Positions 21,127 to 22,053 of a stretch of DNA of 32,000 nt are shown one piece after another. This DNA comes from Casimicrobiaceae bacterium (GTDB lineage: Bacteria > Pseudomonadota > Gammaproteobacteria > Burkholderiales > Casimicrobiaceae), in the NCBI GenBank assembly GCA_026646885.1, contig JAPKHK010000010.1, positions 6,703 through 38,702 on the forward strand, written 5' to 3'. Every line of letters starts with the position of its first letter. Positions within the stretch are counted from its first letter, which is position 1. Position numbers and translations under genes: made by a program. Below the pieces are notes generated by a model. The model made no database searches. It was given only the letters and a program-made list of their open reading frames with translations, and was not told the DNA's origin.

Positions 21127-22053
21127 ATGTCAAGTGTCGAAACAGACCTCTGTGAGATCTGCCGGAAAGAGCAGGCCGAGTCCCGTCCGTCCTATTCAGA
21201 AGGCGTCCACCAGATTTGCCCGCGGTGTGGCGAGTTCAAGCTTCCGTTGGTCGCAGTGTCTGTTCTCAGAGGCGGTGTTGGCCCAGCCAAGCGGGCGCTG
21301 TTGTCTGGCTGGGTACGCGAACAGAACAACTCTGGAGCGACTCCTATAATCACCAAAGAGGCTCTGGCCAGCATATTCCAACGGCCATTGCCGACTGTTG
21401 CCCAGCGGGCGTTCTCGGTGCTGAAGGAGGCAGAAAAGGGCCTTGATGCGTTGGGGCAACCGTTCGACATGAATGAACCACGCTTTCTGGCTGCGAGCTA
21501 TTCGGCGGAGGCAAACGACGTCATCTATCTGGTGCGAACGCTCAAAGATCAAGGACTGGTGGATATTCGAACTCTTGACGGGACCTGCGAAATCCTCCCC
21601 AGGGGCTACATCAAGCTTGACGAATTGCGAGGGCTTCAATCTGGCTCTTCCCAAGGGTTCATTGCGATGTGGTTCGACACTGCGTTGAATGACGCCTATG
21701 AGAGAGGCTTTCAGACGGGTGTGTTGCGAGCTGGATATGACCCGCTCCGAATGGATCGAGTTGAGCACGTAAATCGAATTGACGATGAGATCATTCGTCA
21801 GATCAACGCTTCGCGCTTCGTCGTTGCGGACTTCACGGGCCATAGAGGCGGTGTCTACTTCGAAGCGGGCTACGCCCTTGGGAAAGGAATTCCCGTATTT
21901 TGGACCTGTAGCAGTTCACACATGAACGATCTACATTTCGACATTCGGCAGTTCAATTGCATTGATTGGGACGAGCCCGAGAGTCTTGCTGAGCGGCTTG
22001 CTACCAGAATTGAGGCGGTTCTGGGAGCCGGGCCGAATAGGCCAGCAGGGTAA
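21127..22053 (+). CDS. Zn-ribbon / winged-helix / nucleoside 2-deoxyribosyltransferase-like (TIR/DrHyd-related Rossmannoid) fusion protein
   Basis: 308 aa.
- Residues 9-34: C9xxC12...C31xxC34 zinc ribbon.
- Residues ~125-168: wHTH-like (VIYLVRTLKDQGLVDIR...ILPRGYIKLDEL).
- Residues ~176-300: FIAMWFD...IDDEIIRQINASRFVVADFTGHRGGVYFEAGYALGKGIPVFW. This matches the NDT-like pattern (FvAMpF ... viaDlT...nVyyElGyA.alGkPv), and the Glu (E246) sits at the catalytic position.

Codons are richer in A/T endings than in the flanking core genes. There is no SD sequence. Confidence 0.7.
   Translation: MSSVETDLCEICRKEQAESRPSYSEGVHQICPRCGEFKLPLVAVSVLRGGVGPAKRALLSGWVREQNNSGATPIITKEALASIFQRPLPTVAQRAFSVLKEAEKGLDALGQPFDMNEPRFLAASYSAEANDVIYLVRTLKDQGLVDIRTLDGTCEILPRGYIKLDELRGLQSGSSQGFIAMWFDTALNDAYERGFQTGVLRAGYDPLRMDRVEHVNRIDDEIIRQINASRFVVADFTGHRGGVYFEAGYALGKGIPVFWTCSSSHMNDLHFDIRQFNCIDWDEPESLAERLATRIEAVLGAGPNRPAG

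Follow-up and report, generated by a model that had tools for sequence, protein, structure and literature searches.

Positions 21127-22053 of the 32,000-nucleotide stretch analysed here (contig JAPKHK010000010.1 of the Casimicrobiaceae bacterium assembly GCA_026646885.1, positions 6,703 to 38,702 of the forward strand; hereafter the window) hold a gene for a 308-amino-acid (aa) protein in which a zinc ribbon, a winged helix-turn-helix (wHTH) fold and a domain of the TIR/nucleoside 2-deoxyribosyltransferase (NDT) superfamily are joined. The most likely role of this protein is that of a conflict system contained in a single polypeptide and acting against phages by abortive infection; we put at about even the chance that it is a stand-alone sensor-effector of this kind, predicted to cleave NAD(P)+ or nucleotides. 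The gene and its parts are as follows.

21127..22053, + strand: whole gene for the 308-aa zinc ribbon / wHTH / TIR-NDT-like fusion, stop codon included (open reading frame list and sequence)
21127..21246, + strand: residues 1-40, four-Cys zinc ribbon CxxC-N18-CxxCGEF of four short beta-strands (Cys conservation, AlphaFold2), with Cys codons at 21151-53 (C9), 21160-62 (C12), 21217-19 (C31) and 21226-28 (C34)
21247..21390, + strand: residues 41-88, basic helical segment with the near-invariant motif R56-A-x-L-S60-G-W-x-x-x-Q66-N (family charge, alignment)
21391..21636, + strand: residues 89-170, wHTH fold (Foldseek of the AlphaFold2 model of the N-domain)
21652..22026, + strand: residues 176-300, flavodoxin-like TIR/NDT-superfamily domain (PADLOC, Pfam, Foldseek, conservation)
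21862..21864, + strand: codon GAA for Glu246, predicted catalytic nucleophile or acid (invariant in 80/80 members; hhalign to NDT and DNPH1)

The open reading frame (ORF) at 21127-22053 (+) begins with an ATG and lies exactly where it was first described. Its product is identical to protein P0001 of the protein collection, in which 2301 homologous clusters were found at E <= 1e-3; the best 120 of these are without exception full length (~305-312 aa, identity 58-80%). The ORF is therefore not due to chance and is a genuine intact gene, and the start codon is supported since the N-termini of the homologues align at Met1, their common N-terminal alignment point. With these coordinates, the ATG and the 2301 clusters, a preliminary description of this DNA as holding a 308-aa ORF in an accessory island is borne out. 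The three-module architecture proposed there agrees with the conservation of the Cys residues, the fold matches and an AlphaFold2 model of the full protein on the family alignment (pLDDT 87.4, pTM 0.85). Conservation was assessed on 54 close homologues and on 80 divergent family members reaching down to ~33% identity.

Conservation is highest in the C-terminal domain (column mean 0.82, versus 0.67-0.68 for the N-terminal segments). This domain carries the motifs FxAMxF, D235, GVYFE246AG, H270-F-D272-x-R-Q-x-N and W281, and the series quoted previously, FIAMWFD ... IDDEII ... FVVADFTGHRGGVYFEAGYALG, was found in the protein. E246 is invariant in all 80 of the divergent members, down to ~33% identity, and the same 80/80 count was obtained for F178, A180, M181, F183, D235, G242-Y244, A247, G248, H270, F271, D272 and W281. 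In hhalign comparisons with Lactobacillus leichmannii NDT and human 2'-deoxynucleoside 5'-phosphate N-hydrolase (DNPH1), the reference sequences of which were checked against PDB entries 1f8x and 8qhr, E246 pairs with E98 of the former (E 0.045) and E104 of the latter (E 0.062), and it stands, as a Glu nucleophile of this type would, in a (G)-x-x-E-x-G-x-A motif after the central strand. The alignments thus support the placing of E246 at the predicted catalytic position; the earlier assignment of the nucleophile to this residue holds, with invariance in 80/80 members and a pairing with E98/E104 at weak hhalign E-values. Six residues before Glu246 lies the pair H239-R240 (R in 74/80, H in 59/80), at an offset which corresponds to S98 in DNPH1 and D92 in the Lactobacillus NDT when the sequence register is taken by count and not by superposition. 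In DNPH1, a Ser in the S98 region binds the nucleotide phosphate. On this register the H239-R240 pair would suit NAD or a nucleotide, both of them phosphorylated, and not a nucleoside.

At the sequence level a single match of the protein is statistically strong, that to the PADLOC model PDLC00733, 'Effector / TIR' (E 4.8e-14), which is confined to the catalytic domain (residues 212-291 against profile positions 288-364 of 388); another family member, P0164, also matches this model, presumably a CBASS-type effector model. The top fold match of the C-domain in the PDB is the TIR domain of SPARTA TIR-APAZ (8isy_B; Foldseek E 1.9e-3, probability 1.0), followed by further matches to BtpA/TcpB TIR, SARM1, YtoQ and DNPH1/RCL, the chains of the last giving a TM-score on target of 0.63-0.69 and a root-mean-square deviation (rmsd) of 3.4-4.4 A (probability 1.0, E 0.04-0.07). 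Matches in BFVD comprise viral nucleoside 2-deoxyribosyltransferases, a CMP/hydroxymethyl-CMP hydrolase, and Toll-like receptor and TIR/WD40 proteins. In the model, the C-domain has both a TIR-type fold and a flavodoxin-like fold superposable on NDT/DNPH1. The claim that this domain is NDT/TIR-related accordingly stands as far as the PADLOC TIR model and the TIR and NDT folds are concerned, and falls short in Pfam, where NDT is sub-threshold and no TIR family appears at E up to 10. Either name, TIR-like or NDT-like, may apply: the motifs (AMWFD; GVYFEAGYALG) are NDT-like and the best fold and PADLOC matches are TIR.

A sub-threshold similarity of residues 182-273 (window 21670-21945) to the 'spike' region of the straight-fibre protein pb4 of phage T5 was also seen. 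Pfam PB4_spike matches the 308-aa protein at E 2.6e-4, a PDB sequence search gave marginal matches only (7zlv and 8hre, residues 350-443 of pb4, E 0.04-0.06), and a precomputed PF24168 call is attached to several homologues. The catalytic Glu is not conserved in pb4. The similarity may be due to chance or to a decayed NDT/TIR-like fold in pb4, and is probably not meaningful.

The N-terminal head begins with the zinc ribbon. Among the 54 close homologues C31 and C34 never vary and the conservation of C9 and C12 is at least 90%; all four are conserved in 75-78 of the 80 divergent members, in agreement with the CxxC-N18-CxxC zinc ribbon recognised in the preliminary description. Its strands (residues 6-8, 16-19, 26-31 and 35-40) are present in both AlphaFold2 models, that of the full protein and that of the N-domain alone. 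The following segment, residues 41-88, has a median isoelectric point (pI) of 11.4 and a net charge of +4 across the family and is the only basic part of the head; S60, G61 and Q66 are invariant among the close homologues. When the N-terminal 170 residues were modelled alone (pLDDT 92.9), the nearest PDB folds found with Foldseek were the DNA-binding domains of CggR/DeoR, MarR, PadR, IclR and CRP (probability ~0.99, rmsd 2.3-3.6 A over ~76-80 columns, E only 0.04-0.2). The segment previously called winged-helix-like, residues 89-170, therefore does fold in the model like the wHTH of known regulators. It is laid out as helices 91-104, 119-123 and 129-141, a beta-hairpin wing at 145-156 and a closing helix at 158-169, past which a short linker leads to the C-domain. 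Helix 129-141, which carries ...L-x-D-Q-G-L, occupies the position of a recognition helix, and its exposed face is made up of positions that vary among the close homologues. With both the zinc ribbon and the wHTH segment acidic, binding of DNA by the head is plausible as a prediction but not assured; a protein or small-molecule ligand is equally possible.

The N-module has no match in Pfam or PADLOC, and neither the Pfam scan nor Foldseek gave detectable similarity to SAVED, STING, CNB or SLOG sensors; no second-messenger sensor domain (SAVED, STING, CNB, SLOG, Macro) was recognised in it, its fold being that of wHTH regulators. This bears on the suggestion that the protein is the effector arm of a CBASS-, Pycsar- or Thoeris-type signalling pathway encoded elsewhere, its N-module binding a second messenger made by an unlinked cyclase or TIR protein. 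The best sequence match is indeed to a model named 'Effector' and described as 'TIR', and in systems of this type oligomerisation upon ligand binding activates the TIR effectors (PMC9402430). However, the PDLC00733 match is limited to the catalytic part of that model, neither a cyclase nor any other gene recurs beside the family in 83 non-redundant loci (in which the nearest six ORFs on each side were clustered by blastp), and when ten ORFs of the window, from the island and the part just past it, were scanned with PADLOC, no core component of CBASS, Pycsar or Thoeris turned up. Solitary transfer of a dependent effector would, moreover, leave it non-functional in most recipients. We regard this explanation as quite improbable.

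Further evidence for a self-contained sensor-effector came from the occurrence of the head on other proteins. A phmmer search with residues 1-170 against 1.84 billion representatives recovered 338 proteins at E <= 1e-3; among the best 151 of these, 73 have the TIR/NDT-like domain, 66 are short, possibly fragments or stand-alone heads, and 12 have other C-termini. These last include a Ser/Thr kinase (Pkinase) in P0121, which matches PADLOC PD-T4-6 and mad6 at E ~1e-32, a Schlafen/AlbA_2 domain (SLFN_AlbA_2) in P0130 and P0192, a KAP NTPase in P0141 and P0150 (PADLOC QatA, PifA and PDC-S20), and several domains without identification. In the alignment of heads, the zinc ribbon, the LSGW helix and the EPRF motif are kept in all of the alternative fusions, and the head ends cleanly before the linker with sharp domain boundaries. 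The N-module is thus a portable unit. By analogy, one head on many effectors is the pattern seen for sensor modules of conflict systems, and this evidence of a swappable effector strengthens the reading of the protein as a stand-alone defence gene. The kinase fusion lies in a stretch resembling a mobile genetic element (MGE), with a Rep protein, HTH_17 and a DUF5343/HEPN_Swt1 pair; the Schlafen fusion at locus L093 is a solitary insertion amid housekeeping genes. Pairing of the effector-associated-domain (EAD) adaptor type was considered and rejected with a hidden Markov model of the N-module, which found one gene per locus in 92 loci; there is no second N-module gene in the 95 fetched loci and the window, the sole double match (L080) being a single frameshifted gene.

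Two observations on these relatives may be added. At locus L092 (8001-14751), the KAP fusion P0150 (1270 aa) is followed by genes for a 304-aa protein with weak similarity to HARE-HTH and a 559-aa protein with weak similarity to CHAT (caspase-like), which looks like a separate multi-gene conflict system with the same head. Ten head-only representatives of 169-188 aa (P0126, P0140, P0161, P0166, P0167, P0187, P0190, P0195, P0197 and P0202) were also noted; such complete head-only proteins may be stand-alone heads (e.g. regulators or decoys) or genes cut by contig ends.

The regulator-like fold of the head could also be read as that of a one-component transcription factor, with the zinc ribbon and wHTH as the DNA-binding output and the NDT-like domain as a non-catalytic or slow-turnover, SLOG/LOG-like sensor of nucleosides or nucleotides. 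The nearest folds of the N-domain are all regulators (MarR, PadR, DeoR/CggR, IclR, CRP), the basic segment 41-88 could contact DNA, and folds of the NDT/SLOG type act as nucleotide sensors in other proteins. Yet no adjacent target operon is conserved in the 83 loci, the same head is found on kinase, KAP NTPase and Schlafen domains tied by PADLOC to defence proteins, and the catalytic Glu and the polar residues around it are strictly invariant within the most conserved domain. Nor are an acidic wHTH with an unconserved exposed face on its 'recognition helix' and a gene that is a low-GC solitary insertion what a transcription factor would suggest, and such a function appears rather unlikely.

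The gene is rare and widely scattered. At least 560 genomes among 185,579 species representatives (one genome per species) contain a relative, in Alpha-, Beta- and Gammaproteobacteria, delta-proteobacterial lineages, Nitrospinaceae, Latescibacterota and Chloroflexota, and further in Verrucomicrobiota, Pirellulales, Pyrinomonadaceae (presumably Acidobacteriota), Balneolaceae, Flavobacteriales and others. The G+C (GC) content of the gene falls below that of flanks at a distance of over 3 kb in 66 of 71 loci (Wilcoxon p ~1e-12, median -7.5 points), and the adjacent 3 kb are only 1.3 points lower than these far flanks, which indicates insertion of a single foreign gene in many genomes. The gene travels alone by horizontal transfer, often among defence and mobile genes. 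Extreme values were seen at L027 (0.47 versus 0.70 in the flanks), L039 (0.53 versus 0.66) and L072 (0.36 versus 0.54), where the gene lies at about 10001-10900 of each locus and the adjacent 3 kb are not depressed.

This distribution is difficult to reconcile with a nucleotide N-hydrolase of the DNPH1 or MilA kind with a housekeeping or salvage role, which would sanitise modified (deoxy)nucleoside monophosphates ((d)NMPs) and bear a DNA- or protein-binding head. The C-domain does fold like DNPH1 (TM-score on target up to 0.69) and the viral CMP/hydroxymethyl-CMP hydrolase, and the PGAP annotation of some relatives, among them plasmid-borne ones in Leptospira and Bacillus mycoides, reads 'nucleoside 2-deoxyribosyltransferase'. 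Against this, the gene is patchy and rare, has a foreign composition, shows no linkage to genes of nucleotide metabolism and shares its head with kinase, KAP and Schlafen fusions. A salvage role is therefore very improbable.

No neighbour family recurs in more than 6 of the 83 non-redundant loci, and those that recur do so at scattered positions, which rules out a conserved operon partner; close co-directional neighbours occur in ~28% of loci and are mutually unrelated. Among the three nearest ORFs on each side in 25 loci, Pfam matches include AAA_21 (five), phage integrases (four), HTH_3 (four), resolvases, rve and N6_Mtase, together with ribonucleotide reductase, a tRNA synthetase and ABC transporters. 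PADLOC was applied at E <= 1e-10 to the nearest three ORFs on each side in two sets of 25 loci. Matches in the first were AriA/AriAB, mad2/mad3, JetC/JetD, type I restriction-modification (RM), DRT, PD-T4-6, PD-Lambda-5_B, PDC-S21 and NsnB, and in the second type I and II RM, mad2/3, AriA, PDC-M07A and NsnB. The near ORFs of the two sets matched 201 and 294 PADLOC families, and those lying beyond 5.5 kb in the first set 105, a comparison that is not a genome-wide baseline; the far families include JetA, Cas1/Cas9, DrmD/PLD-helicase and PDC-S18. The gene is often found beside integrases and RM, PARIS-like, Wadjet, DRT, PD-T4-6 and PDC genes. Individual contexts comprise MobA, Fic, RelB and an integrase (L001), an insertion sequence (IS) element (L002), an HTH gene with an M78 peptidase (L004), and DUF3800, GIY-YIG, an integrase, T5orf172 and a PLD-helicase with type ISP RM (L005). 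The family neighbourhood agrees with a mobile accessory or defence gene; the preliminary description asked for enrichment beside known defence genes, towards which the many defence and MGE neighbours may point, some loci being housekeeping ones.

Relatives are present on 30 plasmids, conjugative and mobilizable ones among them, and on Bacillus mycoides megaplasmids the gene follows an integrase and an ArpU regulator. On the phage-like Leptospira interrogans plasmid p4 (L090; NZ_CP043897.1, 5363-10175) a relative stands between a SEFIR gene and a gene for a 772-aa class I S-adenosylmethionine (SAM) methyltransferase; the three are co-directional and tightly spaced and may form a small defence cassette. 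Among sequenced phages only three weak partial matches were found, in Streptococcus prophages, a result that is neutral as to a defence function, and no E. coli relatives of the Klebsiella-type variant were found at the DNA level. Five homologue copies gave shortened alignments (L024, L033, L049, L080 and L087); at least L080 is frameshifted, and L024 and L087 are on short contigs and may be incomplete.

These mobile contexts raise the question of a selfish or competitive function in place of phage defence, i.e. a toxin held in check by its own N-terminal domain and serving addiction or stabilisation of an island or plasmid, or competition between MGEs. A toxin-antitoxin (TA) pair and IS debris adjoin the gene in the window, relatives are carried by conjugative or mobilizable plasmids and by islets flanked by integrases, and turnover such as that of the five shortened copies, at least one of them (L080) frameshifted, would be typical of costly genes. 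However, no cognate antitoxin gene is conserved in the 83 loci and many copies sit in the chromosome as insertions of one gene, with no hallmarks of an MGE. Since the enzyme chemistry would be the same, the idea overlaps mechanistically with the abortive-infection reading; as an explanation in its own right it is unlikely.

Several results weigh against a stand-alone abortive-infection effector. Pfam Nuc_deoxyrib_tr (PF05014, clan Nribosyltransf) is sub-threshold (E 3.1e-4, 21.3 versus 28.8 bits, residues 213-266), and TIR, TIR_2, TIR-like and DUF4062 are not among the Pfam matches at E up to 10. Every Foldseek E-value is above 1e-3 and the hhalign alignments to NDT and DNPH1 are statistically weak (E 0.045 and 0.062). 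The wHTH segment and zinc ribbon are acidic across the family (pI ~5, net charge -3). The contrast between near and far PADLOC matches lacks a genome-wide baseline, and some PADLOC models also match generic ATPases and methyltransferases. Purely housekeeping loci exist, namely L007, with a DUF1902 gene, and L093, the Schlafen fusion. Of the original proposal, then, the stand-alone defence gene is favoured by the solitary low-GC insertions, the defence and MGE neighbours and the swappable effector, and the nucleic-acid-sensing head is less certain, the wHTH being acidic.

For an abortive-infection system of this kind the following mechanism can be proposed. The N-module would act as a sensor or regulatory head for an infection cue, which may be a nucleic acid or a protein of the phage, and binding of this cue would relieve autoinhibition or drive oligomerisation of the C-domain. 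The C-domain would then cleave the N-glycosidic bond of an abundant metabolite, and with this essential metabolite depleted the phage could no longer replicate, while the infected cell would be sacrificed. As to the substrate, roughly half of our expectation falls on NAD(P)+, something over a third on free nucleotides and the small remainder on bases in DNA. NAD(P)+ is preferred because it is hydrolysed by TIR domains and by the NDT-like N-glycosidase of Retron-Eco1, and because single-protein NADases activated by phage proteins are known. Retron type II effectors combine an NDT-like domain with a wHTH (PMC7736814), the N-glycosidase of retron-Eco1 hydrolyses NAD(P)+ (PMC12673091), and the retron enzyme causes abortive infection (PMC7736814, PMC12673091, bioRxiv 10.1101/2023.08.16.553469). 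Similarly, the single-protein TIR NADase SpbK is switched on by the SPbeta protein YonE (PMC12847820) and the TIR-like NADase Swarozyc/DUF4062 by the phage portal (bioRxiv 10.64898/2026.05.01.722283). By analogy with DNPH1, (d)NMPs may be an alternative substrate.

It is possible, if on balance somewhat doubtful, that the head made up of zinc ribbon, basic helix and wHTH is an undescribed portable infection-sensing module, carried on at least four effector chemistries and answering a common phage or MGE cue; to the same tentative degree, there would then be a new family of immune receptors, each a single polypeptide, with the 308-aa protein as its commonest member. Identification of the common cue would in that case explain several orphan defence genes together, and the kinase, Schlafen and KAP NTPase effectors that bear the head would provide a natural domain-swap series for the cue sensed. 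If the protein is indeed a stand-alone defence system, an abundant and phylogenetically wide one-gene immune system would have been overlooked by current catalogues: PADLOC v2 sees the catalytic domain only, Pfam is sub-threshold and an NCBIfam scan of the 308-aa protein gave no match. It would also represent a third route by which the TIR/NDT fold enters immunity by metabolite depletion, beside canonical TIRs and the retron NDT effectors. If the defence reading is wrong, annotation would still be worthwhile for what is a large and uncharacterised set of N-glycosidase-like proteins that bind DNA or a ligand. The gene is compact (0.9 kb) and easily tested.

The region upstream of the gene had been described as lacking a Shine-Dalgarno (SD) sequence and containing a weak TATTGG box, from which a leaderless mRNA was proposed. 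The first of these points is correct, there being no SD-like core upstream of this copy. No sigma-70-like promoter was matched upstream of the gene. An SD-like core is present upstream of 44 of 71 homologues, which rules out a leaderless mRNA as a property of the family.

In the window the gene lies in a GC trough (~0.55 versus ~0.61) within a low-GC stretch of ~5 kb. Its surroundings include an ORF6N gene, a Gp49/HigB-like and HTH_3 pair, and fragments of DDE and IS110 transposases, so the setting among TA modules and IS debris is as it had been described.

22247-22492, - strand: 81-aa ORF, 3 nt past the ORF6N gene, no library match
22496-22903, - strand: ORF6N-domain gene, PADLOC single-gene defence candidate PDC-S05 (E 5e-40)
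23022-23774, - strand: 250-aa ORF, no Pfam or PADLOC match
23437-24063, + strand: transposase remnant, C-terminal part of DDE_Tnp_1_6 only (Pfam)
24306-24904, + strand: Gp49/HigB-like toxin (94 aa, Pfam Gp49 E 8e-26) and HTH_3 antitoxin-like protein (105 aa), overlapping by 4 nt
24925-25544, - strand: IS110-family transposase apparently split in two ORFs, with Pfam Transposase_20 in 24925-25260

The Gp49/HigB-like and HTH_3 genes are a typical type II TA pair. The ORF6N gene may be N-terminally truncated, its PDC-S05 match beginning at profile position ~37-42, and 25287-25544 appears, by reading without a library scan, to be the upstream piece of the IS110 transposase. Between the gene and the convergent 81-aa ORF, 9 nt past the stop codon, lies a tandem-repeat array (22062-22251) of five copies of CCCCAGGAAACGGG, 2.2 copies of GGAGAAACGG and ~3 copies of a 28-33-nt unit GGAAACGGGGTCGGGAGTCCTAATCACC. 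With one mismatch allowed, CCAGGAAACGGG occurs six times in the window against 0.4 expected, five times exactly in the array and once with one mismatch at 25524. The downstream GGAAACGGG array was considered as a set of iterons or binding sites and rejected, as it is unique to the window and no comparable repeats flank the homologues; it is therefore not part of the gene family. Neither a tRNA or non-coding RNA integration site nor a riboregulator was found near the gene, an Rfam scan of the window from 19.5 to 27 kb gave no matches, and the island is not bounded by inverted repeats.

The candidate defence islet starts directly past a XylR-type regulator, and the part of the window before it (~5700-20064) looks like a cluster for anaerobic degradation of phenol or hydroxybenzoate; secretion genes lie at the start of the window.

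8-2387: type II/IV secretion ATPase and platform genes
5713-7008, - strand: AMP-binding CoA ligase
8716-13966, - strand: three UbiD-like carboxylase subunits
14877-18013, - strand: PPDK_N and PEP-utilizer proteins, phenylphosphate-synthase-like
18352-20064, + strand: XylR_N/V4R/sigma-54 activator

No description of an architecture joining a zinc ribbon and wHTH to a TIR/NDT-like domain was found in full-text literature searches, and the earlier statement that the protein matches no named system is upheld, PADLOC recognising the catalytic domain only, NCBIfam nothing, and no partner gene being present. By architecture the closest known proteins are the retron type II effectors (Retron-Eco1/Ec86), which likewise combine an N-glycosidase-type domain of the NDT superfamily and a winged helix in one polypeptide. 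In these the NDT-like domain is N-terminal and the wHTH C-terminal, whereas here the order is reversed and a zinc ribbon stands in front of the wHTH. In contrast to retrons, no reverse transcriptase (RT) or multicopy single-stranded DNA (msDNA) partner recurs near the family in the 83 loci and 19.5-27 kb of the window is without an Rfam match; a single RT match, of the DRT type, was seen within three ORFs of the gene in the first 25 loci. Retron models are not among the PADLOC matches at E up to 10, nor Retron-Eco1 structures within the top 50 Foldseek matches.

By logic the closest are the single-gene TIR or TIR-like NADases SpbK and Swarozyc/DUF4062, stand-alone genes with an accessory sensing domain, as is predicted here, which deplete NAD+ upon recognising a phage component (PMC12847820; bioRxiv 10.64898/2026.05.01.722283). 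Together with the SPARTA TIR they have in common with the 308-aa protein a flavodoxin-like TIR-type fold and a conserved Glu. The motifs FxAMxF and GVYFEAGYA, however, look more like NDT/DNPH1 than canonical TIR, and the sensing head is unrelated to those of SpbK and Swarozyc. The N-terminal ~270 positions of PDLC00733, the match to which includes the catalytic Glu region, are without a counterpart in the 308-aa protein. As regards NDT and DNPH1 themselves, the Glu-x-Gly-x-Ala motif aligns with their nucleophile (E98/E104) and the beta1 sequence 'AMWFD' resembles 'AGWFTD' of the Lactobacillus NDT; the protein differs from them in its additional invariant HFDxRQxN...W motif, in its 170-aa head and in being encoded by an accessory and not a metabolic gene. 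By membership it does not count among the effectors of CBASS, Pycsar or Thoeris, because no CD-NTase, cyclase or ThsB-type signal generator is linked to it (83 loci and ten window ORFs) and no second-messenger sensor is recognisable. Finally, through P0121, P0141 and P0150, which carry the same N-terminal zinc ribbon-wHTH module, the protein is related to the classes of PD-T4-6-type kinases and KAP NTPases (QatA, PifA, PDC-S20-like). The effector chemistry of these is entirely different, and the common head suggests a common sensing or regulatory logic.

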